This document shows, in pieces, positions 6,865 through 30,696 of a stretch of DNA of 60,179 nucleotides. The notes under the pieces are model-generated. The model was not told where the DNA came from. It saw only the letters and a list, made by a program, of their open reading frames with translations, and searched no databases. The first letter of the stretch is position 1. Every line of letters begins with the position of its first letter. The stretch is from a virus (lineage: Duplodnaviria; Caudoviricetes): IMG/VR virus record IMGVR_UViG_3300031857_000191, positions 1 through 60,179 of that record; one strand, written 5' to 3'. The translations under genes were made by a program, and so were the position numbers.

Positions 6865-6870
6865 CATTTG

Positions 6871-7311
6871 TGGAGATGACGGGAGTCGAACCCGTGTCTT
6901 GTTAAGTATTCATAATACCAACGTTTCACATGCTTAGATCTGATAAATCTGATCAGTAGGGGCAAACCAGTTATGGTCGACTTCCACCACTTGATTTTAT
7001 GACTATCAAGAAAACAATTTGTAAGGCTGGGGCGATGTAGTCATTACTCTGCTTTCACACCCATCACTCCTAAAGAGCTGTCAGTATCAGAGTACCTTAC
7101 TAGCTTGTAACTTCTGTTCCTAGGATGTTACACCCGATGCTAATTAAGCAGCTAATGCGTACTCGTTCGCGCCTACGAATGACATTAAGTCTTCGAAGGT
7201 CATGGTTGACATTTCGTCGTTTATTGGTTTGTAGCTTTCTAAGGCGACACTACCGAACGCCTGCATGTGGTACTATCAATCGCATAGCAATCAAATACCA
7301 AAAACATCCCC
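6871..7311 (-). ncRNA. ssrA: tmRNA
   Basis: 5' GGGGATG pairs with 3' CATCTCC-A including the G3:U wobble; T-arm ACGGG-TTCGACT-CCCGT; internal reading frame 7218..7144 ends ANEYALAA-stop. Confidence 0.93.
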
Positions 7312-7328
7312 ATAATAGTTTTTAAAGT

Positions 7329-7360
7329 AAAAAATAAGCCACCCAGTAAACTGAGTGGCT
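7329..7360 (-). terminator. Terminator after small lipoprotein gene
   Basis: AGCCACTCAG-TTTA-CTGGGTGGCT followed by TATTTTTT on the minus strand. Confidence 0.75.
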
Positions 7361-7367
7361 ATATAAA

Positions 7368-7520
7368 TTACTTAGCAGAATCAACAGTAGATACAGTTGT
7401 ATCAACAGTCACAGTTGAATCAGTAGATACAGTTGTTGAATCAGTAGCAACTACATCAGTAGAAGCATTACCGCAAGCAGTTAAAGCAGCGATAGCGAAA
7501 ATAGCGATTAATTTTCTCAT
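7368..7520 (-). CDS. 50-aa Asp/Ser/Thr-rich lipoprotein (below ORF-track cutoff)
   Basis: MRKLIAIFAIAALTAC-GNASTDVVATDSTTVSTDSTVTVDTTVSTVDSAK; lipobox LTAC; ATATTTAT motif upstream and terminator downstream. Confidence 0.8.
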   Translation of the reverse strand: MRKLIAIFAIAALTACGNASTDVVATDSTTVSTDSTVTVDTTVSTVDSAK

Positions 7521-7553
7521 GTTTGTTTTTTTTGTTTATAATAAATATTATTG

Positions 7554-7639
7554 TGCCTCAGGCGAGAATCGAACTCGCACTCGCGTTGCGGCGAACAAGA
7601 TTTTAAGTCTTGCGTGTCTACCTATTTCACCACCAAGGC
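7554..7639 (-). tRNA. tRNA-Leu(TAA)
   Basis: Cloverleaf with CAAGA-CT-TAA-AA-TCTTG anticodon arm and long variable arm; CCA not encoded. Confidence 0.93.
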
Positions 7640-7660
7640 ATTATCTGTTATCTTATAATA

Positions 7661-7918
7661 TTAGAGAATATCATCATTAGATAGATTAATCTCTATTTTA
7701 TTTTTATTTCGTCTCACTTCTTCAGCTTCTTTGTAAAGCCTTATCCAAGTTAAACTAACATCAACTATAGCTAATACAGGTGCTAAAAATAGAACCATAA
7801 TCGCGTCTAATCCTGGTGCTGAGTCTAGTCCACCACCTCTTAAATTAGTTGCATTATAGCGTTTTACTAATTGATAAAAACAATAAATAACACTTACTAC
7901 ATAAATTGTCCAAAACAT
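7661..7918 (-). CDS. Small membrane protein
   Basis: Two hydrophobic segments; preceded by a TTTG-N20-TATATTTA promoter. Confidence 0.6.
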   Translation of the reverse strand: MFWTIYVVSVIYCFYQLVKRYNATNLRGGGLDSAPGLDAIMVLFLAPVLAIVDVSLTWIRLYKEAEEVRRNKNKIEINLSNDDIL

Positions 7919-7939
7919 TTCTTTATTTTTTAATTATAT

Positions 7940-7971
7940 TAAATATAATATCTTTTTTTTGGGTCATCAAA
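7940..7971 (-). promoter_or_regulatory. Bacteroidota sigmaA-type promoter (-33/-7)
   Basis: TTTG-N20-TATATTTA, close to the known TTTG-N19-21-TAnnTTTG consensus. Confidence 0.7.
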
Positions 7972-7987
7972 TTTATTTAACCCATTG

Positions 7988-8058
7988 TTGCCCCTCAAGG
8001 ATTCGAACCTCAACAAACAGTACCAAAAACTGTCGTACTACCGTTATACTAAAGGGCA
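7988..8058 (-). tRNA. tRNA-Gln(TTG)
   Basis: ACAGT-TT-TTG-GT-ACTGT anticodon arm; GGTTCGAATCC T-arm. Confidence 0.92.
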
Positions 8059-8063
8059 ATAAG

Positions 8064-8137
8064 CTCTCTCTCTTGGACTTGAACCAAGGACCCTCTGATT
8101 AACAGTCAGATGCTCTAACCAACTGAGCTAAGAAAGA
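8064..8137 (-). tRNA. tRNA-Asn(GTT)
   Basis: TAGCTCAGTTGGTTAGAGC D-arm; TCTGA-CT-GTT-AA-TCAGA anticodon arm. Confidence 0.93.
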
Positions 8138-8142
8138 GTATG

Positions 8143-8230
8143 CGGAAGCTCAGGGATTCGAACCCCAGAATCGCTCATCACGATTGCTTGTTTTCAAGAC
8201 AAGTCCGTTCAACCACTCCGGCAAGCTTCC
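8143..8230 (-). tRNA. tRNA-Ser(TGA)
   Basis: CTTGT-CT-TGA-AA-ACAAG anticodon arm, long variable arm, G discriminator. Confidence 0.93.
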
Positions 8231-8234
8231 GTTT

Positions 8235-8307
8235 TGAAGTAGGTCACTGGAAACCTTATAACTGATATATCAGCTTATGGGTTAAGTACTCCTCTTATGC
8301 TACTTCA
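8235..8307 (-). ncRNA. Unidentified structured RNA unit C1 (73 nt)
   Basis: 8-bp closing stem TGAAGTAG/CTACTTCA enclosing a long hairpin; ends 4 nt before tRNA-Ser. Confidence 0.55.
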
Positions 8308-8322
8308 TCGTACTCCAATTTG

Positions 8323-8423
8323 CAGTCAGGACAGGATTTGAACCTGTACGTCTCTTATTTTACAGTTGATTAATGAGACTACTCAACTAAGGTTAATAGC
8401 GTCTATCATTCCGCCACCTGACT
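8323..8423 (-). ncRNA. tRNA-like RNA A (Leu-type scaffold, non-canonical anticodon and variable regions)
   Basis: Acceptor AGTCAGG/CCTGACT, D-arm TGGCGGAATGATAGACGC, T-arm ACAGG-TTCAAAT-CCTGT; no clean 5-bp/7-nt anticodon arm. Confidence 0.75.
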
Positions 8424-8424
8424 A

Positions 8425-8539
8425 TGTGAAGAGCTTTACAATTAAGTTGGTACTCTTCGTGATAGGGATGCTATCTTCGCCCTAAACCATCATTCGTGAG
8501 GTCTGTGTCCTCCAACGATACTCATCAGTTCTCTTCACA
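8425..8539 (-). ncRNA. Unidentified structured RNA unit C2 (115 nt)
   Basis: 9-bp closing stem TGTGAAGAG/CTCTTCACA; internal GAGG/CCTC and TAGGG/CCCTA hairpins. Confidence 0.55.
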
Positions 8540-8557
8540 GCAATAGATGAGAGGCTG

Positions 8558-8700
8558 TAGTCAGGACAGGATTTGAACCTGTAATACTTGCACATGCTAT
8601 GCCCAAGGCTTCTAATCGTGATAGCGACTCATTAAACTACAAGCATGTATATGTCTAATATCTACTAAAACTAAGCGTCTACCAATTCCGCCACCTGACT
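8558..8700 (-). ncRNA. tRNA-like RNA B (same scaffold as A with a longer, different insert)
   Basis: Acceptor and T arms identical to A; D-arm TGGCGGAATTGGTAGACGC; insert of about 90 nt with a TACATGCT/AGCATGTG stem. Confidence 0.75.
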
Positions 8701-8704
8701 ATAT

Positions 8705-8801
8705 GGATGAGGTTTAGTTGGCCGACTAAACAATGTTACTATTAGCTGCACCACGAGTTACACGTGGCTGACGGGTGCTCCGCTTTCATATACTCTCATC
8801 C
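8705..8801 (-). ncRNA. Unidentified structured RNA unit C3 (97 nt)
   Basis: 7-bp closing stem GGATGAG/CTCATCC; internal GCAC..CACG/CGTG-GTGC and GTTTAGT/ACTAAAC hairpins. Confidence 0.55.
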
Positions 8802-8804
8802 TTG

Positions 8805-8877
8805 ATCCAGAAACAAGAATCGAACTTGCGACCTACTGATTACAAATCAGTTGCTCTACCTGCTGAGCTATTCTGGA
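8805..8877 (-). tRNA. tRNA-Thr(TGT)
   Basis: ACTGA-TT-TGT-AA-TCAGT anticodon arm; TCCAGAA/TTCTGGA acceptor stem. Confidence 0.92.
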
Positions 8878-8880
8878 ATA

Positions 8881-8971
8881 TAGTAAAGAATCTGACTCGT
8901 GAAACACCAGATAGTACTTAATTTTGTTTTCTCACATTTTAAGTGGTCACCTATGGATGTAGTCTTTACTA
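8881..8971 (-). ncRNA. Unidentified structured RNA unit C4 (91 nt)
   Basis: 9-bp closing stem TAGTAAAGA/TCTTTACTA; ends 3 nt before tRNA-Thr. Confidence 0.5.
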
Positions 8972-8979
8972 ATTTATTT

Positions 8980-9079
8980 TAGGAAAGTAGAAGATGGGTG
9001 CGTGGACATCTACTTTTACGATTGGCGTTACTTTGGTTTATACCTCCTCACCTTTTTTAAGGGATTCCCAATCAACCTA
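8980..9079 (-). ncRNA. Unidentified structured RNA unit C5 (100 nt)
   Basis: TAGG/CCTA closing pairs, GATTGG/CCAATC stem, AAAGTAG..GATG/CATC..CTACTTT hairpin; starts 4 nt after tRNA-Glu. Confidence 0.55.
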
Positions 9080-9083
9080 TTTG

Positions 9084-9155
9084 TACTCTCAACGAGAATC
9101 GAACTCGTATTACCAGGATGAAAACCTGAGGTCCTAACCGTTAGACGATGAGAGC
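9084..9155 (-). tRNA. tRNA-Glu(TTC)
   Basis: TCGTCTAACGGTTAGGAC D-arm; TCAGG-TT-TTC-AT-CCTGG anticodon arm. Confidence 0.92.
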
Positions 9156-9174: not shown

Positions 9175-10842
9175 TTAGAATCCTAATCCTGGATTGCCAA
9201 ATTCATCTTCTTTCTTATCTTTAGTTGGTTCCTCATAAATAACTGTTTCAGTTGTTAATATAGTACCAGCTACAGCAGCTGCATTTTCAATTGCTAAACG
9301 AGTTACTTTAGTTGGATCTAAAATACCAGCATCAAGCATATTAACAAATGTTTCTGTTTTTAAATCAAATCCTTTCCATGTATTATCATATATCTCAGTA
9401 TTTGGATCTAATGATATTCTATCTAATTCATACATATAATACTCTGGATTTTGATAACCGGCGTTAATTAATATCTGAGTAAATGGAGATGATAGAGCAT
9501 TGAAAACAATTTTTTTACCTGTTTTAAAATCATTGCTTTCATCTTTACTAAATGTAATAGCATTTCTAGCATACAATAAAGCAGCGCCTCCACCTGGTAA
9601 TATACCTTCTTCATTAGCAGCACGAGTAGCGAATAAAGCATCTTCAACTCTATCCTTATACTCTTTCATATCAATTTCATTCACACCGCCAACATTAATA
9701 ATAGCTACACCACCAATTAATTTACCTAATCTTTCTTGTAATTTTTCTTTTTCAAAGAATGATTGTGCTTTATCAATTTGATCTTTAATCTCATTAGCTC
9801 TTATATCAATATCAGCCTCAGATCCTTTACCATCAATAACTGTTGTTTTATCTTTAGTTATTGTCACTGTTCTAGCTTGACCCAAGTAAGATGATAATTG
9901 AGATGGTTGTATTTTATCTAATTTTAATCCTTTTTCTTTAGATATCACTTGACCACCTGTCACAATAGCTAAATCTTCTAAAATTAGAGTTTTACGCTCA
10001 CCAAAGTCAGGAGCTTTAACAGCTACTACTTTAACAATACCTCTCATTTTATTAACAATAAGTGTCGCTAATGCTTCACCATCAATATCTTCAGCTACAA
10101 TCAATAATGATTTATTCTCACTATTTACTTTTTGTAACACATTTAATAATTCAGCGGCAGCAGTGATACGACCATCATAAATTAATACAAATGGATCTTC
10201 AAGTACAGCTTGCATTGTATTATTGTTAGTCACAAAGTAAGGTGATTTATAACCTCTATCAAACTGAATACCTTCAACTACTTCAAGTGTTGTTTCACCT
10301 GTTTTACTTTCTTCAATAGCAACAACTCCATCACGACCTACTTTTTCAATAGCAGTGGCAATTAAATTACCTGTTGACTCATCATTATTAGCTGAGATAG
10401 TAGCTACTTGTTTTAGTTGTTCTTCAGATGAAATATCTTTACTATTTTCTTTTAATGCTGTTACTACTTGTTTAACAGCAGCATCAATACCTTTTTTAAT
10501 TTCAACCGCGTTAGCACCTTCACCTACTTTATTTAAACCTTCTTTAATTAAAGCATAAGCTAACAATGTAGTAGTGGTTGTACCATCACCTGCTGTATTA
10601 GCAGCTTTAATAGCTGATTGTTTAATTACTTCAGCACCAATATTTTCAATTGGATCTTTTAAAGTGATTGATTTTGCTACTGTTACTCCGTCTTTAGTAG
10701 ACACAGGTAACTCATTTTGTTTTTCGATAATAACATTACGACCAAATGGACCTAATGTTGACACAACTGCTTTAGATAACTTTTTAGCACCTTCAGCTAA
10801 TTTCTGTCTCGCGTCGTTATTATATTCAATTATTTTACTCAT
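9175..10842 (-). CDS. groEL: Chaperonin GroEL
   Basis: TLGPFGRNV, TKDGVTVAK, AGDGTTT, FDRGYKSPYF, KAPDFGE, EKLQERL, PGGG motifs. Confidence 0.97.
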   Translation of the reverse strand: MSKIIEYNNDARQKLAEGAKKLSKAVVSTLGPFGRNVIIEKQNELPVSTKDGVTVAKSITLKDPIENIGAEVIKQSAIKAANTAGDGTTTTTLLAYALIKEGLNKVGEGANAVEIKKGIDAAVKQVVTALKENSKDISSEEQLKQVATISANNDESTGNLIATAIEKVGRDGVVAIEESKTGETTLEVVEGIQFDRGYKSPYFVTNNNTMQAVLEDPFVLIYDGRITAAAELLNVLQKVNSENKSLLIVAEDIDGEALATLIVNKMRGIVKVVAVKAPDFGERKTLILEDLAIVTGGQVISKEKGLKLDKIQPSQLSSYLGQARTVTITKDKTTVIDGKGSEADIDIRANEIKDQIDKAQSFFEKEKLQERLGKLIGGVAIINVGGVNEIDMKEYKDRVEDALFATRAANEEGILPGGGAALLYARNAITFSKDESNDFKTGKKIVFNALSSPFTQILINAGYQNPEYYMYELDRISLDPNTEIYDNTWKGFDLKTETFVNMLDAGILDPTKVTRLAIENAAAVAGTILTTETVIYEEPTKDKKEDEFGNPGLGF

Positions 10843-11125
10843 AAATTGCTAATATTTCTGATTCTTTAGTTATGTAATAATCTTCACCATCAACACTAAT
10901 TTTAGAAGAACCCAGTTTAGGTACTAATACTTTTTGTCCAGGTGTTAATTTTGTTCTATAATACTCTCCTGTATGCCAATTGTAAGTATCACTTACATTA
11001 ACTACTTCCCCTATTTCAGGACGTTCTTTACCCATGTCTGGAATGACAATATTTCCATATGTTTGTTCTTGTTCCTCAATAGGTTTAAGGATAACATGAC
11101 CATTTAATGGTGTTAATTTACTCAT
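10835..11125 (-). CDS. groES: Co-chaperonin GroES
   Basis: LTPLNGHVIL...GNIVIPD...EILAI pattern; directly upstream of groEL. Confidence 0.93.
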   Translation of the reverse strand: MSKLTPLNGHVILKPIEEQEQTYGNIVIPDMGKERPEIGEVVNVSDTYNWHTGEYYRTKLTPGQKVLVPKLGSSKISVDGEDYYITKESEILAIYE

Positions 11126-11148
11126 ATTCTTTATTTTATTTTAATATA

Positions 11149-11355
11149 CTAATTTTTTATCTCATAGCCAAGCAATTCAGCTTCTTCTATTTCTTCTAAG
11201 AAAAACAAGTAACCATCTTTTCTTAACACTTTATTTGATCCTACCCATGCCATTATTAGATCTAGGTTAGGTCCAGTGTATTTAACATCATCTAAAACTT
11301 TACGTTTTAGAATGTATAGTTTGTCTTGAAACGAAATTAATTGTGAATTTATCAT
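11149..11355 (-). CDS. Hypothetical protein
   Basis: 68-aa ORF co-oriented in the operon. Confidence 0.55.
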   Translation of the reverse strand: MINSQLISFQDKLYILKRKVLDDVKYTGPNLDLIMAWVGSNKVLRKDGYLFFLEEIEEAELLGYEIKN

Positions 11356-11358
11356 AAC

Positions 11359-11894
11359 TGAGATTAGGTAGGTCTCTTTTTAAATTATCCTTTTAGGATT
11401 TTTTTGTTGTTTACTTTAATCTCGATTTTCCTAGGTGCTTTTTCAGCTGCATAAGGAATATCAAGTACTAGTAAACCTTTATCTAAAGTTGCTTGTAATT
11501 TAGATAATTCAAATTTTGATGCTACCTTCCATGCTAAATCAAATGAACGTTTAGCAATACCTTTTTGTAGGTAAGATTTGATTTCTTCTGTTTCTGGTTT
11601 GTTATAAGAGATACGTAATGTTTCTCCATCTACTTGAATGTCTAGATCAGATTCAGATAAACCTACTACTGCTAGTTCAAAGCGTAACCCATCTTCTGTT
11701 TCTAAAATATCAACTGGATAGTTGATTTTGTTTTCAAATGTGTTAAATGTGCTGTTTGCGTCGAAAAAATTTTTCCAGACGATGTCAAATGGGTCAATAC
11801 CCCAATGTGCGATTCTTGTCATTTTGTTTTGTTTTGTGCTTCCCTAAGGTAAGCGGTTAATTAATTCATAACTTGAGACCTACCTATAATCTCA
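11359..11894. repeat. Inverted repeat pair (11359..11376 and 11875..11894) bracketing hsp20
   Basis: TGAGATTAGGTAGGTCTC versus GAGACCTACCTATAATCTCA: reverse complements apart from a 2-nt bulge. Confidence 0.85.
11385..11822 (-). CDS. Small heat-shock protein (Hsp20/IbpA-like)
   Basis: NYPVDI, ELAVVG, YLQKGIAKRSF, ATLDKGLL, PRKIEI alpha-crystallin motifs. Confidence 0.93.
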   Translation of the reverse strand: MTRIAHWGIDPFDIVWKNFFDANSTFNTFENKINYPVDILETEDGLRFELAVVGLSESDLDIQVDGETLRISYNKPETEEIKSYLQKGIAKRSFDLAWKVASKFELSKLQATLDKGLLVLDIPYAAEKAPRKIEIKVNNKKILKG

Positions 11895-17921: not shown

Positions 17922-19538
17922 TTAATATTTTTTAAAGTAATAATCTTCTATAATTAAACAATCTAGTTCTGTTTTTTCAAGTATTGTGAAAGCGTCTTTA
18001 ACAGTTGATAATATTGGTTTTCCATCCACATTAAAGGATGTATTAAGTAAAACACCGATACCTGTTTTTTCTTCAAATTTAGTTAACAAATCATATAACC
18101 ACTCATTTTGTTCTCTAGTCACTGTTTGAACCCTAGCTGTACCATCTACGTGAGTAATAGCTCCTAATTTTTCTTTCCATTCTTCTCTTACCTTAGGACA
18201 AAAACTCATCCATTTAGATTCTTTATTCCATTCAAAATACTTATTTACATCTTCTAAACGAACAACAGGAGCAAATGGTCTATACCACTCCCTATGTTTT
18301 ACTTTAGCATTTAAAGTATCTTTCATTTCTGGAATAGATGGATTACATATTATGCTTCTATTGCCTAAGGCTCTAGCTCCATGTTCTGATCTACCTCTAG
18401 CTACACCAACTATTTTTCCTTCACTTAAATCATTAATTAAATCATCTTGATCTAAAAAGTTAGATGTAAATCTAATATGAGTGTTTTGAATATAATAAGA
18501 TAAACTATCTAAATCTAATAATGTTGTGCCTGAGTATGTACTATCAAATGGTTTTTCTGGTCTTAAATGATTCAACATTAAACCTAAAGCAATACCACAA
18601 TCATTCGGATCTGGGCCTACAAATACTTCTTTATCAAATTCATTTACTAAACGTGTATTTAATAAAATATTTAAACCACATCCCCCAGCTATACCAATAG
18701 GCAAATCAGGATATTCATTCATATAAGGTAAAGCTATTTCTAAAAAGCTATCTTCAAATGCTCTTTGAGTTGTAGCAGCTATATCCCAAGCTAATTTATC
18801 CTCTATTCTTTCATATATATCAAATGTTACTCCTATTTTATTACCTAATTCATTCACATATTGTTCATAATCTAATCCATTGAGATTACTTTTATAAAAA
18901 TCCATAAATGCTGGTAGCCATTCTTCTCTTACTTCTCCATAAGAAGCTAATCCCATTATTTTGCCTGGATAAACTAAATTGCCTGTTCCTAAATCTTCAA
19001 ATTTAATATCTTTAAGATAATGACCTAATGTCATATATGGAAATCCTAAGTCATAGTAAATATGAGGACTGTCAAATAAAGGACTATTTACACATTCTAA
19101 TAATTTAGGTGACTCACCTCTAATACAATGGTATATATTAAATTTACCATCATTTCCTCCTCCATCAAAAGAAAATACTAACATTTCAGGATGTGGAGAT
19201 TGATAAAAACATCCAGCTGCATGAGCTTCATGATGAAGACCATGAATAAAATTTTTAGCAGGAATATATGTTTCTAGTTCATGTTTTTCACTTATGATAA
19301 CATCTGTATTTAAAAAATAACAGTTTTCAAATTCTGTTATATTAAATTTATTCATTATCCATTGAGGAATATATTGAGCATAGAATAGTATATCTTCTGT
19401 TTTAGGACATTTATATTGAGCTAAACCACTATTTTTATAATTAAGAAATCTTTCTAGTTCTAATACTAAAAGTATTTCACCATTCTCTTCTACAACATAC
19501 GCTGCGTTATGAGATCCGTAAAAAGCTATATTCGCCAT
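17922..19538 (-). CDS. O-carbamoyltransferase (NodU/CmcH/TobZ family)
   Basis: HHEAHAA, DGGG, GKIMGLASYG, AGGCGLN, ARALGNRSI, KHREWYRPFAP, THVDGTARVQTV, LLNTSFN. Confidence 0.95.
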   Translation of the reverse strand: MANIAFYGSHNAAYVVEENGEILLVLELERFLNYKNSGLAQYKCPKTEDILFYAQYIPQWIMNKFNITEFENCYFLNTDVIISEKHELETYIPAKNFIHGLHHEAHAAGCFYQSPHPEMLVFSFDGGGNDGKFNIYHCIRGESPKLLECVNSPLFDSPHIYYDLGFPYMTLGHYLKDIKFEDLGTGNLVYPGKIMGLASYGEVREEWLPAFMDFYKSNLNGLDYEQYVNELGNKIGVTFDIYERIEDKLAWDIAATTQRAFEDSFLEIALPYMNEYPDLPIGIAGGCGLNILLNTRLVNEFDKEVFVGPDPNDCGIALGLMLNHLRPEKPFDSTYSGTTLLDLDSLSYYIQNTHIRFTSNFLDQDDLINDLSEGKIVGVARGRSEHGARALGNRSIICNPSIPEMKDTLNAKVKHREWYRPFAPVVRLEDVNKYFEWNKESKWMSFCPKVREEWKEKLGAITHVDGTARVQTVTREQNEWLYDLLTKFEEKTGIGVLLNTSFNVDGKPILSTVKDAFTILEKTELDCLIIEDYYFKKY

Positions 19539-20450
19539 TTATATTAAAGGTTTTAAAAAGAAATGAGAGAATGATGTTTGTTCTGGTTTAAAGATATTAT
19601 TCCATCCTTCATGATAGAATGTGTCAAAATGCCAATTTTTAAACCAGTTTCTATTAGTGGCATTTATATAAGCCATCACTTCTTGTTCAGTGCATATCTC
19701 ATCTACTTGTAAAATTTGATCTATTACTTCTTTAGACTTGGTAATATACTGTAACATTAATTCAGATTGGCCTCCAAAAAACCCAGCTACAGGAAATACA
19801 GAATCATAATTAGTACTTAAATTTAATTTAGTGTTAAATTCAAATAAATTATCATCTGATGTTTTTCTATATAAGTTGATTATTTTATCTTCAGCATACT
19901 CGTTTATTTTACTTAATACATCTGGATTAAATGCTTTATCATAATGATATACTTTATATTCATTAGCCATATATTGGTTTCCATATAATGAAGCAAATTC
20001 AGGCTCATCATTATATTTACTAGCAAAAGCAGGAAATAATCCATTGTGAGATAAACCTGAATCAATCCAATATAACTGAGTATTTGGTTCATATTCATTA
20101 GCTAAAAAAGAATATTTCATCCAATATATAACTGTTGGTCTAGTATAAAATCTAGGGTTATTAGGATCATTATAAGCAGGTTTACTTGTTCTTATTTTAT
20201 AAACTTGATCTTGATAAGGATTATCTTTGATATCATATACTTTAAGTATTAGATTTTCAAGATTAAATTTTTCTTTTAATTCAACTAATTGATTATATCC
20301 TTTATCTCCAGGATCAGTATAGCAAATTATTTCTCCCATGTTACTTATAGTAGCTAGAGAGTACTTATACCATCTATCTCTATTTAACTGTCCCCAATAA
20401 GGTTCTCCATTATGAAATGGATAATACGATGTTACTAATTTATTTTTCAT
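19539..20450 (-). CDS. HtrL/YibB-like glycosyltransferase
   Basis: YWIDSG, AGFFGG, TEQEVM motifs parallel to the middle domain of 15623..17920. Confidence 0.65.
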   Translation of the reverse strand: MKNKLVTSYYPFHNGEPYWGQLNRDRWYKYSLATISNMGEIICYTDPGDKGYNQLVELKEKFNLENLILKVYDIKDNPYQDQVYKIRTSKPAYNDPNNPRFYTRPTVIYWMKYSFLANEYEPNTQLYWIDSGLSHNGLFPAFASKYNDEPEFASLYGNQYMANEYKVYHYDKAFNPDVLSKINEYAEDKIINLYRKTSDDNLFEFNTKLNLSTNYDSVFPVAGFFGGQSELMLQYITKSKEVIDQILQVDEICTEQEVMAYINATNRNWFKNWHFDTFYHEGWNNIFKPEQTSFSHFFLKPLI

Positions 20451-21691
20451 ATTGTATGTTCTATTCTTTCAGCCCAGCCTCTTTCTTTACTATAAGCCCA
20501 AGCTACCATTCGTTTAGGATCTTTATCAAAATAAGGAAAAAATTCTTCATAATGAATAGGTGTACCATTCATAAATGATTCTAATTGATGTCCTTCAATA
20601 GTTTTAGTATGGATACCAATACCATTTTCATCATCAAATGCAATTAATATAGACGCATAATCATTAGCTGGTAATTCATTTTTATGAATTGTCACTAAGT
20701 GATAAAATGATTTAGACCAAGGGCTATCAATTTGATTAGGTGGGTATTGATTATCTAGAGTATATTTTTGAACTGATCTAGTTTTAAAATTCACACCAGC
20801 ATATGTTTCATAATCTTCTATTGTTCTAGCAGTTCCTAAATCATATCCTGTTAAATCATATCCATTATCTTCTACTCTAAATAATTGTCTAATTTTAGCT
20901 CTAGCTATATTTTGTCTATTCCACCAATCAACTCCAAGTTTAGCATCATCATCCCATTTTAACATTCCGCTTCTTTCTTCTCTCATAGTTGAATGCCATA
21001 CTACTAATTTATGAGGGTGGAACATATCATATCCATGAGTATAAGATCTAACTGTTAGGTTAATTTCTTCACCACTAAAGTAAATATCTGGATCATGTTT
21101 TACTTCTCTAGCCCATTCTGTTCTAGCAAAACAAAAATGTCCTGATAAGAATCTACTAAATGGAGGTTCAGTCATATCTTTCCAACCATGTAATAAACTT
21201 GGTCTAATAAAAATAGTACCATGAGGATAAAAACAAGCAAATTGTTGTTGCCAAGGTTCCATTGAACGTCCTGCTGGATCATTAAATGGAGTATATAATG
21301 GTAAATAAGCGGCTAATATTGGTTTATAACCTTGTTTTTCTCTTTGATTATGCATTTCAATTAATGTCACATCCCAATCTTGAGCAAATCTATGATGTGA
21401 ATCAAGTTGTAAGATATAATCTTGTTTACCCATTAATTGCTCATTTATCACTGCTCTAGCCCAAGGTAAACCTTTAGCTTCAGTATATAAACATTCATAA
21501 ATGTTAAAACGTTTATCCCCTTTAAACTCAGTTAAATCATCAAATTTATCATCTGGATGATATTGTCTACAAATACCAAAATGAATACGCTTAGGGTATT
21601 TAGCATTTTTAAGAGCATCCTTAATAGTAGGTACTAATTCTGGATCTCTATAAGCTGGTAAGTGAATAAATATTGTTTCTTTTTTATTCAT
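20447..21691 (-). CDS. GT60-like (Skp1/polypeptide) GlcNAc transferase, paralogue 2
   Basis: TIFIHLPAYRDPEL, KGLPWAR, LQLDSHHRF..WD, FLSGHFCF, GEE motifs of the Gnt1-type family. Confidence 0.85.
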   Translation of the reverse strand: MNKKETIFIHLPAYRDPELVPTIKDALKNAKYPKRIHFGICRQYHPDDKFDDLTEFKGDKRFNIYECLYTEAKGLPWARAVINEQLMGKQDYILQLDSHHRFAQDWDVTLIEMHNQREKQGYKPILAAYLPLYTPFNDPAGRSMEPWQQQFACFYPHGTIFIRPSLLHGWKDMTEPPFSRFLSGHFCFARTEWAREVKHDPDIYFSGEEINLTVRSYTHGYDMFHPHKLVVWHSTMREERSGMLKWDDDAKLGVDWWNRQNIARAKIRQLFRVEDNGYDLTGYDLGTARTIEDYETYAGVNFKTRSVQKYTLDNQYPPNQIDSPWSKSFYHLVTIHKNELPANDYASILIAFDDENGIGIHTKTIEGHQLESFMNGTPIHYEEFFPYFDKDPKRMVAWAYSKERGWAERIEHTI

Positions 21692-22931
21692 ATTTTATAT
21701 TTTGTTCTATTCGTTCACACCATCCTTTTGAAGTACTATGTGGCCATACTCTCCAAGATTTTGGTTGTTTATTATCATTATATTCTCTCCAAATGTGTAT
21801 AAATTGATCATTTGGATCTTGATTTAATAGCCCTTGATATTCTTGAACATCCATATCTTGTCTATAAGCATCTGTTCCATCTTCATTTAAAACTGCTACA
21901 GCGAAAGAAGTATAATCACTTTCAGTTAATGCTCCTTTCCAAACATCAATACAAATTTTAAGCTTATTAAGTAAATTATCTTCAAACTTATCTTGAGGAA
22001 CAGGGAGTGGTTTATATTCAACAGTATGTTTATGTACTTGTCTAGTAGAAAATTTAACACCAATGTAATGTTCATATTCTTCTAAAGTACGAACTTTTCC
22101 AAATCCATATTTTTCTAAATCTGTAGTTGAACCTTCTATTACACTACCCATACCATGTAAAGCTCTATATCTAGAATAAGATATTGAATTTCTTTTATTC
22201 CATTCACTATCATCATCCCATTGTTTTACTTTTCCTGATCTAGTATATTCATGCCACATAATTGGCTTATGAGGATGAAATAAATCATATCCATAAGTAA
22301 ATGAACGAGCAGCTAATGATGGTTCTTCACCATGAAAATAATATAAAGGATCATATTTAACTTCATTACACCATTTGCCTAATGTAAAAATAAAATGTCC
22401 TGATAAAAATCTAGATGGGATAGGTCCTGTAAGTGATTTCCAATCTGGAATAGAATGTGGTTTAATAAAGATAGGACCCTCAGGCATATATCTATCAAAC
22501 TCTAAACTCCAACAATCATCTTGTCTTCCTGCTGGGTCATTATTTGGAAAATATCCTGGTAGGTAAGCTGTTAAAAGTGGTTTTTTATGACCTTCTTTTT
22601 TGAGACTTTTTAACATCTTAATTAAAGTAGAGTCCCAATGTTTAGTAAATCTGTGGTGTGAATCTAATTGTAAATAATATGTTTCACCACCATATAAATC
22701 TTGTAGTAAATTTCTAGCCCAACATGCTCCTTTAGCTTGTTGGTATGGTACTTTAATAAAATGAAATCTAGAATCATTTTCAAACTCTTCTATAGACTCA
22801 TCTTCACCATACTGCCAACATACACCTATTTTTAACCTATCTGGATTTTTAGCTGTTGCTAATAAATCTCGTAATGTAGGTAATAATTCAGGATCACGAT
22901 AGCTAGCTATCGAAATAAAAATTGTTTCCAT
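21684..22931 (-). CDS. GT60-like (Skp1/polypeptide) GlcNAc transferase, paralogue 1
   Basis: TIFISIASYRDPEL, AKGACWAR, ETYYLQLDSHHRF..WD, YFHGEE, HEY, GKVRTLEEY. Confidence 0.88.
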   Translation of the reverse strand: METIFISIASYRDPELLPTLRDLLATAKNPDRLKIGVCWQYGEDESIEEFENDSRFHFIKVPYQQAKGACWARNLLQDLYGGETYYLQLDSHHRFTKHWDSTLIKMLKSLKKEGHKKPLLTAYLPGYFPNNDPAGRQDDCWSLEFDRYMPEGPIFIKPHSIPDWKSLTGPIPSRFLSGHFIFTLGKWCNEVKYDPLYYFHGEEPSLAARSFTYGYDLFHPHKPIMWHEYTRSGKVKQWDDDSEWNKRNSISYSRYRALHGMGSVIEGSTTDLEKYGFGKVRTLEEYEHYIGVKFSTRQVHKHTVEYKPLPVPQDKFEDNLLNKLKICIDVWKGALTESDYTSFAVAVLNEDGTDAYRQDMDVQEYQGLLNQDPNDQFIHIWREYNDNKQPKSWRVWPHSTSKGWCERIEQNIKYE

Positions 22932-24319: not shown

Positions 24320-24847
24320 CTATAAGGAATTACGTTGTTTGTCTCCTTGCCATTGTCCATTATATAATTCAGCACCATTACATTCGTGGAAGTAGATTTG
24401 TGCTACTCTAGCATCTTTTTCAATGAATATTGTTTCATGTACATAAAGTAATGTACCCATATTTTCTGTTTCAAAGCCTGGATCAAATACGGGGCTATTA
24501 ATAATTGCGCCATTACGATACAATGATGAACGTTGTTTGATAAATGCTACACGATTATCAGGTATTTTACAACCTTCATTAAAAGTAATATCATAAACAC
24601 CTTCATGTAATAACCATCCTTCAACTCCATCTAAATTAATAGATTCAAATGGGGTGTATGTAGTTAATTCAGTTTTGTCTTTTAATACTTTACCAATTTT
24701 GTAATCAGCATTATTAGAAGTAGTGTTTGGAAATCCTACTTTCTGTACTGCTTTAAGAGTAATATCATAACCAACTTGTGCTGGTTTACCTTGTGTATTT
24801 TCTAATAGTAATAGACCTTCGTCTACAATTTGTTTTGCGTTTAACAT
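24320..24847 (-). CDS. dCTP deaminase/trimeric dUTPase family protein
   Basis: GYDITL, QRSSLYRNG, FDPGF, RVAQ, YNGQWQG motifs. Confidence 0.85.
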   Translation of the reverse strand: MLNAKQIVDEGLLLLENTQGKPAQVGYDITLKAVQKVGFPNTTSNNADYKIGKVLKDKTELTTYTPFESINLDGVEGWLLHEGVYDITFNEGCKIPDNRVAFIKQRSSLYRNGAIINSPVFDPGFETENMGTLLYVHETIFIEKDARVAQIYFHECNGAELYNGQWQGDKQRNSL

Positions 24848-24859
24848 ATTATAAATTTA

Positions 24860-25030
24860 TTAAAATTCTTCAGCGATTCCAAGTAATTCAGCTCCAATTA
24901 ATAGACCACCAGCAGCGTTAATATACCAATGATCAACATACATTAGAGCTATTCCTGCTAGTATTCTTCCTACTGATTTAATTAGACTAAGTCTAAAATG
25001 CCAGTTTGTTTTTGATTCTTTTACTTGCAT
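24860..25030 (-). CDS. 56-aa membrane protein (below ORF-track cutoff)
   Basis: MQVKESKTNWHFRLSLIKSVGRILAGIALMYVDHWYINAAGGLLIGAELLGIAEEF; fills the gap between its neighbours. Confidence 0.7.
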   Translation of the reverse strand: MQVKESKTNWHFRLSLIKSVGRILAGIALMYVDHWYINAAGGLLIGAELLGIAEEF

Positions 25031-25031
25031 A

Positions 25032-25322
25032 TTATAATAAATAGTTTTGTACAGTAGGTATTTCTATTGTGTCATAAGTTGCTTCAAATATATCTGGTTT
25101 GCAAGGATAATACTCACCTTTCACCCCACGAATTATATAATCTCCTTTAGAACATTTCATATCACCTTCTAAAGTTGGAATTAACAAATATGGAGAACCA
25201 TCTTCTTCTTTTCCAATTTTAAATTTTTCTATATCACTAAGTGAGAAGATATCTAAACATCTGAAGTTTCCATCATATTGTACTGCTTCAATTACTACTG
25301 GTTTTTTTCTATACTTTGGCAT
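25032..25322 (-). CDS. Conserved phage protein (PGDYG-like)
   Basis: YRKKPVVIEAVQ, IPTLEG, GDYIIRG, YPCKPDIF..TY. Confidence 0.8.
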   Translation of the reverse strand: MPKYRKKPVVIEAVQYDGNFRCLDIFSLSDIEKFKIGKEEDGSPYLLIPTLEGDMKCSKGDYIIRGVKGEYYPCKPDIFEATYDTIEIPTVQNYLL

Positions 25323-25323
25323 A

Positions 25324-25959
25324 TTATTTCATTTTTGTTCCATTCACTTCAATAGCGTGTAAGAACTCTTCTCTAATTAAATTATCTTTCTCCATAAACA
25401 CACCACTAAATTTATTTGTAGTCATTGTAGATGGATGTTTGATACCTCTATGTGAACAACAAGTATGTTTACAAGCAATACTAACTGCTACAGATGGACA
25501 ATCCATTTTAGTAGATAAGTAATCATGAATTTGTTGTGTTAATGATTCTTGCATTTGTGGCCTACGAGAAAACCATTCAACAATTCTATTTAATTTACTT
25601 AACCCAATTACATTTTCACCTGGTACATAAGCTAATGTAGCAAATCCAGTAAATGCTAAGTTGTGATGAGCACACATACTAACGATAGGAATACCTGATT
25701 GGATTACTAATCCATTATAACCATCATCATTAGGGAATACAGTGATGTTTGGTTCATCAGTAATACTACCTACAATTAAATCTTTCAACCATGCTTTAGC
25801 TACACGACGAGGTGTATCTTCTGTTTGTCTATCTGCTTTATAATCAAATCCTACTGCTGTAAGAAACTGAGCATACGCCTCAGATGCATTCTCAATCATT
25901 TGCTCTACTTCTTCTGGTGTACGAGCTAAATTACCATTTGATTTTTTTAATAAATCCAT
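25324..25959 (-). CDS. folE: GTP cyclohydrolase I
   Basis: TPRRVAK, SMCAHH, GLSKLNR, RPQMQE, HTC...RG. Confidence 0.95.
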   Translation of the reverse strand: MDLLKKSNGNLARTPEEVEQMIENASEAYAQFLTAVGFDYKADRQTEDTPRRVAKAWLKDLIVGSITDEPNITVFPNDDGYNGLVIQSGIPIVSMCAHHNLAFTGFATLAYVPGENVIGLSKLNRIVEWFSRRPQMQESLTQQIHDYLSTKMDCPSVAVSIACKHTCCSHRGIKHPSTMTTNKFSGVFMEKDNLIREEFLHAIEVNGTKMK

Positions 25960-25961
25960 AA

Positions 25962-26174
25962 TTAATCTTTTTTATTTTCGTTTAATTTAGCTATTTCTTT
26001 TTGATTTTCCAAAAGTTTTATAGCTACCATAGTATTAAATGTTGAGATTTGATCCCATAATTTATCTATTTCTCTTTTAGCTTTTTCTAATTGAATGTGT
26101 TGACGTATTTGTAAACCCATCAAAATAAATAAAGCTCCTATTAATAGGTGTTCTGGAGTTAATGTTATATTCAT
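25962..26174 (-). CDS. Small membrane-anchored coiled-coil protein
   Basis: N-terminal hydrophobic helix followed by a heptad-like region. Confidence 0.55.
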   Translation of the reverse strand: MNITLTPEHLLIGALFILMGLQIRQHIQLEKAKREIDKLWDQISTFNTMVAIKLLENQKEIAKLNENKKD

Positions 26175-26266
26175 TTCAATTTATTTATTTGTCTAATCAT
26201 GTTTATAGCTCCAAATACTGATAGTATAGCTATAACAACATAACCCCATATAATTAATGTTTCCAT
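26171..26266 (-). CDS. 31-aa single-TM peptide (below ORF-track cutoff)
   Basis: METLIIWGYVVIAILSVFGAINMIRQINKLK; starts just after the queE stop and has an ATGA overlap with the next gene. Confidence 0.6.
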   Translation of the reverse strand: METLIIWGYVVIAILSVFGAINMIRQINKLK

Positions 26267-26267
26267 A

Positions 26268-27104
26268 TTATACGTTTAATGTTTTATTCCAAGCTGCAAT
26301 ATGCAATCTAGTTAAACCTCTAAATCTATATTTCTTAGCCATTTCTAGACAGAATTGAGTACGCTCTTCAAAATCTTTAACATCATCTAATCCTGGCATA
26401 CAAACCACGTTGGCAAGAGGTATGCTAAATGGTATAACAAAGTCACGAAATAATTCTTTAACGTCTTCTTCATTAGATATAACAAATTTAAATTGATAAT
26501 TCTTATGTTCCATTATACGTTTAATAGCGTCAGGTACAATACGCTGTTTCTCAGTCATACCTGAATTAGCTAATTTAGGTGAACAATTGATTTGATCAAG
26601 CATAGTAAATAGCTTGTCTTCAATTTTAATAGTACCATTAGTTTCTATTTCATAGAATGGACTAACAGCATTATCAAGATGTCTAGATAACCAATAATTA
26701 GTAAAATTAACAATTGCTTCTTGATGTCCTTTAATTGTTGGTTCTCCACCTGTCCAAATAACATGAACTGTACCATTTAAAATATCATCATATACACCTT
26801 CATCTTTCCAACGATTAATTAGATAATCAAATTCTTTATCTTCACCTCTCCATAACCACTGAGATGTAGAATCACAAGTCCAAGTTGCTTTACCTTCAGC
26901 ATGTAAATCACCAACAAATATTTCTCCATCTTCTAGATTTTGATCTTTCATTAGTTGGTTAGTGAACGCTCTGCTCATACCGCAAGTTAGGTTACAAATA
27001 CCTAAACGAACAAAATATGATGGAATACCAGATGAAATCCCTTCACCTTGTATGCTATAAAAATCACTACTAATAAGTAGTTTATTTGGATCTATTTTGC
27101 TCAT
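26268..27104 (-). CDS. queE: 7-carboxy-7-deazaguanine synthase (radical SAM)
   Basis: FYSIQGEG, FVRLGICNLTC...CDS (expanded Cys motif), TGGEP, IETNGT, SPKL, RLH. Confidence 0.92.
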   Translation of the reverse strand: MSKIDPNKLLISSDFYSIQGEGISSGIPSYFVRLGICNLTCGMSRAFTNQLMKDQNLEDGEIFVGDLHAEGKATWTCDSTSQWLWRGEDKEFDYLINRWKDEGVYDDILNGTVHVIWTGGEPTIKGHQEAIVNFTNYWLSRHLDNAVSPFYEIETNGTIKIEDKLFTMLDQINCSPKLANSGMTEKQRIVPDAIKRIMEHKNYQFKFVISNEEDVKELFRDFVIPFSIPLANVVCMPGLDDVKDFEERTQFCLEMAKKYRFRGLTRLHIAAWNKTLNV

Positions 27105-27255
27105 TATTTTCTGTTTTAGGTGTTTCTACTTTTTTGAATTGGGCTTTATACTCAGATTTAGATGCATACTGAAATCTGTTACCTGCTTTTTGAAAAGCTT
27201 CTAGGTCACTAACTCTTGTAATAGTGCCTGTTTTTGTGTCTTTTAAACATTTCAT
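27082..27255 (-). CDS. Small hypothetical protein
   Basis: Likely start MKCLKDTK at 27255, coupled by an ATGA overlap to the upstream small ORF. Confidence 0.55.
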   Translation of the reverse strand: MKCLKDTKTGTITRVSDLEAFQKAGNRFQYASKSEYKAQFKKVETPKTENNEQNRSK

Positions 27256-27386
27256 AGTTTCCTCCATGTTTTTATATAATTAAAAATAATATCAAAATTT
27301 AGGGGTTCCAAAAGGAACCCCATTAAATTTAAATGTGTTTTTGAGTCAGCACATAATCCTAAGGCATGTTCAATGACATGAATCAT
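27252..27386 (-). CDS. 44-aa hypothetical protein (below ORF-track cutoff)
   Basis: MIHVIEHALGLCADSKTHLNLMGFLLEPLNFDIIFNYIKTWRKL; ATGA overlaps at both ends. Confidence 0.6.
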   Translation of the reverse strand: MIHVIEHALGLCADSKTHLNLMGFLLEPLNFDIIFNYIKTWRKL

Positions 27387-28213
27387 ATATTAGCTTTTTT
27401 ATGATCATTAAGTACTTTTTCTACTTCTGATTTTACTTCTTCCCACTTAACTATACGAATACCGTTTTCAAGTGTTTCACCATACATTACAGGATCAGGA
27501 CGGCCTAGTTTAATAAACGCTTCTACACGTTCTACTGATGCTGCTGATTTGTAATCTGATAACCATACAGTGTCTGATAGTTTAATTGGTTTATATGATG
27601 TATTTGTACGTTTATATACTTCATCAAATTCTAAGCCTAATGTGTTACATGCTGCTAATCCATCTTTTAATATACCAAACTTATCATCATTCAAATAAGG
27701 TGTATAATGGTATACTAATTCACTATCCCAGTTACCTACTTTAAATGCTTCAAAATCTACATCTCTAAATTCTTGTCTACAATCAGGATAAATAGCGTGG
27801 TCACCAGCGTGAATACCCATCGCAATAGCACATTGTTGTTTTTCACCTTTAGTTGCCTCAGATAAAGCAACAGCTTGAATTAGTGAAGAAAAAATCTTAT
27901 TACGATTAGGAACAACAGTTTCTTTCATATTGTCCTGCTCATAATGTCCCTCAGGAACATCTTTACCACCTTCAACTAAAGCTGAGTTAAGTAATTGTTG
28001 CAATCCATCTAATTTAATAATTTGATGTTTTACACTTTGTCCTTTAGAGTTTAAATATTCAACTAATGATTGTGCTCGTTCAAGTTCAATTCTATGTTTT
28101 TGACCATAATCAAAAGATAAAGCTGTTACTTGATAATCATTAGATAATAAGTGGATTAGTAATGTACTAGAATCCATTCCACCAGATAGACTTAATACTG
28201 CTTGTTTTTTCAT
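27383..28213 (-). CDS. queC: 7-cyano-7-deazaguanine (preQ0) synthase
   Basis: SGGMDS PP-loop, FDYGQKH, VVPNRN, YPDCR. Confidence 0.93.
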   Translation of the reverse strand: MKKQAVLSLSGGMDSSTLLIHLLSNDYQVTALSFDYGQKHRIELERAQSLVEYLNSKGQSVKHQIIKLDGLQQLLNSALVEGGKDVPEGHYEQDNMKETVVPNRNKIFSSLIQAVALSEATKGEKQQCAIAMGIHAGDHAIYPDCRQEFRDVDFEAFKVGNWDSELVYHYTPYLNDDKFGILKDGLAACNTLGLEFDEVYKRTNTSYKPIKLSDTVWLSDYKSAASVERVEAFIKLGRPDPVMYGETLENGIRIVKWEEVKSEVEKVLNDHKKANI

Positions 28214-30464: not shown

Positions 30465-30696
30465 AACCTGATTTAGACTTAAATATATCTATCTCTTCCT
30501 TGGTCGCCAAATATTTGTCTTGTACAATTTGGTTTCCTCGTTTATGTGTAGGTTCATATGGACAATGTCTACAACCATTGCCGCAGCATTGACCACGTTC
30601 TATATGGAAGAGAGCTGTAAATATTACTCGCTCACCTTCCGTATAGTAGTGAATATGTTCTATTAGTTTAGACAATCTCACAAGCACCTCCTGCAC
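30433..30696 (-). CDS. Cys-rich small protein (DUF5522-like)
   Basis: RGQCCGNGCRHCPY motif; start uncertain (perhaps TTG at 30675). Confidence 0.7.
   Translation of the reverse strand: MQEVLVRLSKLIEHIHYYTEGERVIFTALFHIERGQCCGNGCRHCPYEPTHKRGNQIVQDKYLATKEEIDIFKSKSGYDNTLKGNNQ

Follow-up and report, generated by a model that had tools for sequence, protein, structure and literature searches.

Small stable RNAs from the tRNA clusters of bacteriophages T4 and T5 are described counterparts of the two elements that we consider here, RNA1 of T5 being the closest and those of T4 older analogues. The stable tRNA-like RNAs of T4 (species 1 and 2, or rnaC and rnaD) are on record by annotation and in a 2010 review, one passage of which still calls their roles unknown (PMC3014915), while RNA1 of T5 is on record through its annotation (NC_005859, misc_RNA 30501-30644) as a "tRNA-like stable RNA with unknown functions". 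In the tRNA-like domain of tmRNA, the ends of the RNA form an acceptor and a T arm around a large, pseudoknot-bearing insert, and there is no anticodon. In the tRNA scaffolds engineered for making recombinant RNA in E. coli, a foreign structured RNA takes the position of the anticodon arm, and the whole then undergoes processing like a tRNA and gains its stability. YrlA and other Y RNAs (RF02553), which also occur in phages, are described as non-decoding mimics of tRNA in its acceptor, T and D arms, with a different module where the anticodon arm would be (PMC4201824). Here we describe two elements, A (100 nt) and B (142 nt), from the tRNA/tmRNA cluster of an uncultured phage. The window that we analysed is the whole 60,179-nt stretch of IMG/VR record IMGVR_UViG_3300031857_000191. 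A and B are unable to read codons, and they are very probably paralogous genes for non-decoding, tRNA-Leu-shaped RNAs that belong to a family found in many phages.

Two tRNA bodies with unrelated centres

Read on the minus strand, A and B both open with AGTCAGG-TG-GCGGAAT...AGACGC-T and close with T-ACAGGTTCAAATCCTGT-CCTGACT, and in the 60-kb record there are just two occurrences of the 24-nt 3′ end and none of a reversed control pattern. In each element the acceptor makes seven of seven pairs, the D stem three and the T stem five of five, with a T loop of the TTCRA type, and the acceptor, D and T helices of both reappear when each sequence is folded by itself. The T arm that is written out for B in Table 1 is the same in A and is preceded by T in either case. 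The D loops differ, B having G18 and G19 and A having GA, hence no G19. An earlier note, made from the sequence alone, had described identical acceptor and T arms around unrelated inserts, and this is what we find: the centres, 50 nt in A and 91 nt in B, are mutually unrelated. The note had also seen no canonical anticodon arm, and indeed neither centre holds an anticodon stem-loop and ARAGORN, which calls six tRNAs and a tmRNA in the cluster, calls neither element. The Rfam tRNA model (RF00005), whose threshold is 29 bits, reaches 19 bits on part of A and 13.9 bits on the T arm of B, and Rfam as a whole returns only weak tRNA matches on the elements, with no intron and no other family. With R1, a model of the family, the best match in the window after A and B has 16.6 bits.

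Table 1. Positions of the cluster and of the parts of elements A and B in the window; sequences are read on the minus strand.
Feature	Position	Strand	Basis or remark
tRNA/tmRNA cluster with both elements	6868-9155	-	ARAGORN and Rfam; downstream of GroEL
Complete element A, 100 nt, with discriminator G (8323)	8324-8423	-	R1, 75.3 bits
A acceptor, 5′ strand	8417-8423	-	7/7 pairs with 8324-8330
A D arm, loop AATGATAGA, G19 to A	8399-8414	-	leucine-type; similar loops in L098 and L109
A central module, 50 nt, H-type pseudoknot	8348-8397	-	fold kept in relatives with other letters
A pseudoknot stem 1, 5′ strand TAGTTGA	8383-8389	-	pairs with 8363-8369
A pseudoknot stem 1, 3′ strand TCAACTG	8363-8369	-	followed by A-rich loop 3, 8355-8362 (8 nt)
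A pseudoknot stem 2, 5′ strand GTCTC	8375-8379	-	within the 13-nt loop of stem 1; pairs with 8350-8354
A pseudoknot stem 2, 3′ strand GAGAC	8350-8354	-	2 nt short of position 48 and of the T arm
A T arm	8331-8347	-	sequence and fold
A acceptor, 3′ strand	8324-8330	-	sequence
Complete element B, 142 nt, with discriminator A (8558)	8559-8700	-	R1, 66.9 bits
B acceptor, 5′ strand AGTCAGG	8694-8700	-	7/7 pairs with 8559-8565
B D arm, leucine-tRNA type, G18 G19	8675-8691	-	18-mer shared with 60 canonical tRNA-Leu genes of phages
B central module, 91 nt, in place of anticodon and variable arms	8583-8673	-	no anticodon arm called
Predicted hairpin in B just before the T arm, class II variable-arm position	8587-8607	-	minimum-free-energy fold
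B T arm ACAGG TTCAAAT CCTGT	8566-8582	-	sequence and fold
B acceptor, 3′ strand CCTGACT	8559-8565	-	sequence

It is conceivable that such elements are real tRNA genes that are interrupted, the inserts being spliced out to leave decoding tRNAs. With introns permitted, ARAGORN can be forced to a tRNA call on 68 of 86 unique elements of the family, and a plausible leucine or lysine anticodon loop is present in a few members (for example those of loci L107 and L088, and element M624 in L244). The forced calls, however, scatter over many isotypes and put their introns at arbitrary positions; in the ordinary mode 20 of the 86 are called, seven as Leu and the others as different isotypes or with irregular loops. 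Neither A nor B has a 5-bp stem closing a 7-nt loop with U33, and they are longer than a normal tRNA-Leu by only about 18 and 59 nt, far under the size of self-splicing introns. In four freshwater RNA libraries, assembled contigs cover A in unspliced form and continue into the neighbouring spacer (X16 over 8248-8422 and X17 over 8228-8355). The joints that RNA contigs have within B either replace the centre by other letters or leave its middle unknown, with no clean excision among them, and these contigs are other members of the family that share the scaffold. Neither the ARAGORN nor the RNA-contig data give any sign of excision, which the earlier note had named as something that would speak against its reading. 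As the centres are also kept by compensatory change, we regard splicing as extremely unlikely.

A pseudoknot in place of an anticodon arm

The earlier note had remarked that TAGTTGA in A could pair with TCAACTG. This pairing is present, and it is crossed by a GTCTC/GAGAC helix, which makes the predicted fold a pseudoknot. In a relative from L252, a phage with an 81% identical GroEL, stem 1 is AGTTG/CAACT, again around a 13-nt loop, and stem 2 is TGGAC/GTCCA at the same offset in that loop, so that four of its five pairs are changed on both sides with respect to A. The layout returns with other letters in L018 (stem 1 AGTGA/TCACT, stem 2 ACTAGA/TCTAGT), L027 (GAGTGA/TCACTC and CACCT/AGGTG) and L041 (AAGTGA/TCACTT and ATAAGTA/TACTTAT), and a scripted search detected it in 5 of 99 centres of 40-75 nt as against 2 of 495 shuffles. 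These pairs were tabulated by script and by reading the sequences, as the MAFFT alignment had set stem 2 out of register. Changes of this kind, on both strands of a helix, indicate that the centre of A is an H-type pseudoknot that is under selection. Because of its shape, and because the window holds genes of the queuosine pathway, we considered an aptamer of the preQ1-I type; the Rfam PreQ1 models give no match at E values up to 10 in 8231-8810, and the likeness is one of general architecture only.

The centre of B has no alignable relative among 178 centres, the best local alignments being unconvincing. Its fold has a z-score of -1.17 and, including the hairpin at the variable-arm position, is a prediction, according to which the module would consist of a domain of about 60 nt and then that hairpin. 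A suggestion of the earlier note, that the inserts might be complementary to other sequences, came to nothing in the 60-kb window: the longest complement of a centre elsewhere is 12 nt, and shuffles usually give 11-13 nt.

The scaffold across phages

We scanned viral contigs with the 24-nt 3′ end and, since this first scan fixed the 3′ end, scanned a second time with the D-arm 18-mer alone; the counts from both are counts among the matches listed. The search with the conserved flank, which the earlier note had recommended, finds the 3′ end in at least 119 viral contigs. The AGTCAGG 5′ strand lies upstream in 119 of 126 matches (the two of the window included), giving elements of 70-232 nt, and another tRNA or tmRNA is called within 1 kb of 63 of 117 family elements, on the same strand in all 63. 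Among 185,579 bacterial and archaeal species genomes the 3′-end motif occurs in five stretches, all on contigs of uncultured metagenome-assembled genomes, which identifies it as phage sequence and not the end of a host tRNA; the family is restricted to phages. Cultured phages with the AGTCAGG 3′ end were sought in a collection of 50,697 records; 38 records match element B, all of them through the D arm, and none has this 3′ end. Full-text searches of the literature, confined to main texts without supplements, retrieved no description of the wider family.

The D-arm scan (117 matches) returned 60 canonical tRNA-Leu genes, 33 full scaffolds that bear inserts, and 24 matches with no 3′ half in reach. 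Read by eye, the latter include what look like tRNA halves of the attachment-site type and genes with an intron, besides a few members of the family whose ends are imperfect. The 33 insert-bearing scaffolds are 91-221 nt long and have 19 different acceptor stems, yet the acceptor makes all seven pairs in 32 of them and the T stem all five in every one. In an alignment of 46 short elements, picked from 74 unique ones of at most 130 nt, the D stem covaries (GCG/CGC, GTG/CAC, TTG/CAA). Insertions into the D loop invariably fall after A14-A15 and before G18-G19, where they do not disturb the elbow. When 1139 open reading frames (ORFs) from 97 loci were clustered, the commonest protein family was present in 8 of the 97; the scaffold is kept across phages with almost nothing else nearby in common. 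The acceptor, D and T arms, together with A73-C74, are under selection. Compensatory changes are also visible by eye in other sub-families (L004 with the L115 element, L175 with L210 and L242, and L249 with L256). In sub-families the loops of the centre are conserved and its stems covary.

The earlier note had argued that conservation confined to the ends, with a free middle, speaks against random decay. The pattern extends to hundreds of elements in phages: compensatory change accounts for part of the preservation of their acceptor, D and T arms, and their centres cannot be aligned. That the elements are nevertheless functionless duplicates of phage tRNA-Leu in the course of decay might be thought from their D arm, which is that of tRNA-Leu, from remnants such as CTTAA or CTTAG in some members, from the change of G19 to A and the G73 of A, and from the lack of A and B in close relatives of this phage. 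Decay would not, however, leave an identical scaffold in phages without detectable common neighbour proteins, acceptor, D and pseudoknot stems that vary only in compensating pairs, and D-loop insertions always at one tolerated spot; nor does it agree with T5 RNA1, a stable RNA kept in 487 records. We find this reading scarcely credible.

Individual loci show how far the architecture can be varied. In an element of 232 nt (L062 2154-2386, also in L064 and L111) and another of 158 nt (L082 2447-2605), the D loop contains a nested minihelix with an acceptor-like stem and T arm of its own. L252 has, at 7171-7242, an apparently normal tRNA-Gln(UUG) with acceptor AGTCAGA/TCTGACT, and element M624 of L244 is a tRNA-Lys(UUU)-like gene on the AGTCAGG scaffold, so that this scaffold, or nearly the same one, can also bear real anticodon arms. 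In Bacteroides phage BI-TP1, a cultured gut phage (L247 404-556), an element that is missing from the annotation combines a leucine-type D arm and a centre of about 117 nt with the T arm CCCGG/CCGGG and the acceptor GAATAAG/CTTATTC; BLAST finds it in LoVEphage and Phocaeicola phage PV4-TP1 as well. Xanthomonas phage Xoo-sp13 (L245 396-477) has a normal tRNA-Leu(TAG) that is unannotated in its record. Loci with scaffold elements also hold a GOLLD RNA (L095 4335-4742, 285 bits) and a DUF2693-FD RNA (L145 791-839, 76.5 bits), the latter being among the tRNA mimics that a 2026 preprint names.

Comparison with described tRNA-like RNAs

T5 RNA1 has the same layout as A and B. It is located on the tRNA strand within the tRNA cluster, and it has a leucine-type D loop (AATTGGTAGA) on a covarying stem (CCG/CGG in T5), a T arm, a paired acceptor and a centre of about 90 nt that stands where the anticodon arm would be, with a conserved hairpin just before the T arm. 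T5 RNA2 and RNA3 may be named alongside it; the T arm of RNA2, GCAGG TTCGAAT CCTGT, is of a type common in the family. RNA1 differs in that its centre has no sequence similarity to the family, its acceptor is another one and begins with a T-T mismatch, its discriminator is U, and the family model gives it only 22 bits. Moreover, the RNA1 centre is conserved among T5-like phages (74-100% identity in 487 records), whereas that of the AGTCAGG clade is hypervariable. The RNA1 acceptor covaries between Escherichia, Salmonella and Klebsiella phages. Thus the kind is not wholly new, and the clade of A and B is a new clade of the T5 RNA1 kind. In 30 of the 487 records, the RNA1 homologues are mostly unannotated, with five lying under "hypothetical protein" calls and one under a "tRNA-Phe" call.

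The other systems are more distant. T4 rnaC and rnaD are small stable RNAs from a tRNA cluster, and in rnaC a terminal T arm is followed by an acceptor-like 3′ strand and CAA, but they have no leucine-type D arm and no detectable homology, and the 3′ part of rnaC scores 19.6 bits with the family model, which is no better than ordinary T4 tRNAs. A and B differ from tmRNA in having T-A at 3-70 (and not G3-U70, the alanine identity pair) and no tag reading frame but a full D arm, and the Rfam tmRNA model matches neither. In Y RNAs the ends of the RNA lie within the Ro-binding stem and the acceptor is closed, unlike in A and B. The YrlA model has no match on A or B, its only match (21 bits) being on tRNA-Asn and tRNA-Ser, and there is no Ro60/TROVE gene among the 40 window ORFs scanned, in a record that represents 37% of the genome. 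Engineered tRNA scaffolds are a laboratory design, and that natural phage RNAs follow the same logic is something that we would infer. The earlier note had proposed a natural tRNA scaffold displaying a variable payload; the picture of a constant scaffold and a variable module fits our findings, while no particular function of the payload is supported.

Leucine identity

E. coli leucyl-tRNA synthetase (LeuRS) needs A73, A15-U48, G18G19 and A20a, according to passages of a 2023 review, which also describe the anticodon and the long variable arm as unimportant (variants that have neither an anticodon arm nor a long variable arm are still charged) and G73 of tRNA-Ser as an antideterminant against LeuRS (PMC9976931). 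B carries every one of the E. coli leucine identity elements listed, and its leucylation is plausible on sequence grounds. A, with G73 and without G19, is expected to be a poor substrate of LeuRS. In unique AGTCAGG elements, A73 is present in 77 of 84, C74 in at least 78 of 84 and T48 in 78 of 84.

Such constancy could mean that the constant part is the whole point. The elements would then be non-decoding bodies that accept leucine, either to donate leucyl groups or to soak up LeuRS, EF-Tu or enzymes that attack tRNA 3′ ends, and the centre, unalignable across the family, would be a stable, non-decoding filler. This would suit B and a synthetase that ignores the anticodon and variable arms, but it would suit neither A nor T5 RNA1 with its U discriminator. 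It would also leave unexplained why a phage has two to five paralogues with different centres, and the conserved loops and covarying stems of the sub-family centres argue that the centre matters. We consider this account unlikely.

Turnover and exchange of modules

Phages may have up to four or five copies of the scaffold, each with a different centre (L115, L244). None of the eight close relatives of the window phage has orthologues of A and B; in some of them other scaffold elements occupy different places in that cluster. One 32-nt D-loop insert is found in two elements with different centres (that of L103, and M630 in L090), and each of these centres is also found without the insert, the former in L010 and the latter in L078. 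In the pairs L041/L049 and L086/L089, the downstream DNA is about 99% identical (over 399 and 381 nt), while the centres differ and the upstream sequences are unrelated. These cases fit an exchange of modules by recombination within the scaffold.

They also allow the view that it is the DNA which is selected, the halves of the scaffold being hot spots of recombination or homing that shuffle cassettes between co-infecting phages, and the turnover of content among close relatives and an HNH endonuclease gene in the cluster of L256 can be cited in its favour. Recombination, however, accounts for the shuffling and not for the origin of the conservation: the changes preserve RNA pairing, G-U pairs included, the nucleotides of the tRNA elbow are kept, and strand and trailer are as in tRNAs. 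Nor did the sample contain a pair with both flanks conserved and the centre swapped; of the matches of a flank-pair search, 12 raw ones with differing centres were neighbours in one locus, and the sole cross-locus pair had an identical centre. On this evidence we judge selection at the level of DNA to be very unlikely.

Several features of the clusters of close relatives may be recorded here. L249 (about 7239-7392) and L256 (about 7238-7392) have orthologous leucine-type elements of about 150 nt, with the acceptors TGTCAAG and TGTCAGG, a different D-loop hairpin insert each, and a long-range helix that changes from CGCTG/CAGCG to CGCAG/CTGCG. In front of their scaffold elements, L249 (7380-7518) and L252 (6880-6996) have in common a conserved leader, about 120 nt long, which finishes with a CAACT...AGTTG hairpin. 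The window lacks the HNH endonuclease-like ORF of L256, which lies at about 7590-8000 within the tRNA cluster of that close relative.

Genome, cluster and spacers

The virus of the window is an uncultured myovirus, a phage with its own tRNA/tmRNA cluster; the record, a 60-kb fragment, is estimated to be 37% complete. Its proteins include a tail sheath, a T4-type baseplate protein, DNA polymerase, ribonucleotide reductase, GroEL and Hsp20. Sequencing runs that cover most of the window include freshwater and lake-water metagenomes, and the runs with the highest coverage are labelled fungus metagenome. All members of the cluster are on the minus strand, in the order of transcription tRNA-Glu, tRNA-Thr, B, A, tRNA-Ser, tRNA-Asn, tRNA-Gln, a small ORF, tRNA-Leu(UAA), a second small ORF and the tmRNA. 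A trailer of the type N73-C-A-A is common to the cluster tRNAs and to A and B: the bases that follow the discriminators of A and B (CAG and CAA) resemble the N73-CAA trailers of the adjoining tRNAs.

Spacers of 91-205 nt without coding capacity separate the tRNAs and elements (8701-8803, 8425-8558, 8231-8322 and 8878-9082, all minus strand). In the one upstream of B, a closing stem, GGATGAG/CTCATCC, ends about 4 nt before B, and this spacer folds better than shuffles (z-score -2.57); a hairpin in the spacer upstream of A stops 2 nt before A. The spacers, where scanned with Rfam, gave no match. As with RNAI and RNAIII of T5, the neighbours that abut RNA1, the spacers may represent additional stable RNAs. 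A and B might then be mere punctuation, that is, tRNA-like folds that direct RNase P and 3′ trimming and so release structured spacers as the functional RNAs. The lengths of the spacers, the closed one before B, the hairpin before A, the conserved leader of L249 and L252 and the abutting RNA1, RNAI and RNAIII of T5 can all be read in this way. But ordinary tRNAs or a minihelix would suffice for such a task, which leaves the leucine-type D arm, A73, the large covarying centres and the several paralogues unexplained, and for the other two spacers the fold does not surpass that of shuffles (z-scores -1.22 and -1.92). We think punctuation quite unlikely to be the function of the elements.

The tmRNA itself (6868-7311, minus strand), about 1 kb from the elements, encodes the tag ANEYALAA. 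In close relatives a tmRNA also ends the same cluster, with longer tags, as called by ARAGORN, that end in ADYALAA or ADYAVAA. A small lipoprotein-like ORF with repeats rich in Thr, Ser and Val is kept within the tRNA cluster (7368-7521, minus strand, in the window; 6709-6873 in L252). Beyond the cluster, a chaperone block (9175-11822, minus strand) holds GroEL (555 aa), Hsp20 and, just upstream of GroEL, a 96-aa ORF that is possibly GroES. GTP cyclohydrolase I and QueC, of the 7-deazaguanine pathway, and a dCTP-deaminase-like gene are found at 24320-28213 (minus strand), and two glycosyltransferases of the GlcNAc type with a carbamoyltransferase at 17922-22931; taken together, these genes suggest modified DNA.

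Discussion

The family has the upper body of tRNA-Leu (a 7-bp acceptor, a leucine-type D arm, a T arm and the core nucleotides), with a lineage-specific folded module in place of the anticodon and variable arms. On the mechanism that we propose, the RNAs would be transcribed together with the phage tRNA/tmRNA cluster and excised by the enzymes of tRNA processing, RNase P making the 5′ end and trimming of the 3′ end to N73-C74 being followed by completion of CCA, after which they would take up an L-shaped fold. The constant half would provide for processing and stability and offer a handle to proteins that read the tRNA elbow and acceptor end, with B perhaps being charged with leucine, and the variable half would give each paralogue a specificity of its own. 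As to their role, the RNAs may be tRNA-body decoys or adaptors in the conflict between phage and host over the tRNA machinery; this is a guess, which we put forward tentatively and without much confidence. Titration of anticodon nucleases, one of the roles that the earlier note had entertained, is unlikely because neither A nor B has an anticodon loop. The statement taken as a whole, of non-decoding tRNA-Leu-shaped RNAs with tRNA-like processing, a constant handle, a variable specificity and a role as decoys or adaptors, we hold to be reasonably probable, though far from assured.

Several observations weigh against this proposal. At this place in the genome, A and B are present in none of eight close relatives (GroEL 80-87% identical), so that the pair is either dispensable or subject to fast turnover. 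There is no other tRNA call within 1 kb of 54 of the 117 family elements, many of these loci being cut short. The RNA contigs over A have a depth of about 5-6, similar to that of GroEL contigs, and are assembled sequences that may derive from DNA and in which neither RNA ends nor levels of expression are visible. Leucylation would fail for A, and A73 and the core nucleotides, which are common in tRNAs, could have been inherited from a tRNA-Leu ancestor and not selected for charging. Finally, the ORF scans and the clustering of 97 loci yielded no partner protein, the window no target and Rfam no known family; among the 40 window ORFs scanned there is likewise no tRNA-repair or synthetase gene.

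A bolder possibility, which we regard as doubtful, is that the family amounts to a modular display of RNA, in which a constant leucine-tRNA body carries lower modules that are recombined between phages, each tuned to a factor of a host or rival. The displayed modules would be pseudoknots, extended arms and nested minihelices, and the body would give processing, a CCA end, stability and perhaps charging. If true, phages would possess an RNA-based repertoire for counter-defence or host takeover, with a logic comparable to that of guide-RNA arrays.

Stable tRNA-like RNAs are not confined to two coliphages, as is evident from the 33 insert-bearing scaffolds that stand beside 60 tRNA-Leu genes among the matches listed, and annotation pipelines overlook them or lay hypothetical-protein calls over them. 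The fixed scaffold, the preservation of A73-C74, the covarying centres and the differences between paralogues indicate which half of these RNAs holds the shared function and which the specificity. The family is relevant, too, to the counting of phage tRNAs and to the natural rules of RNA scaffold design.

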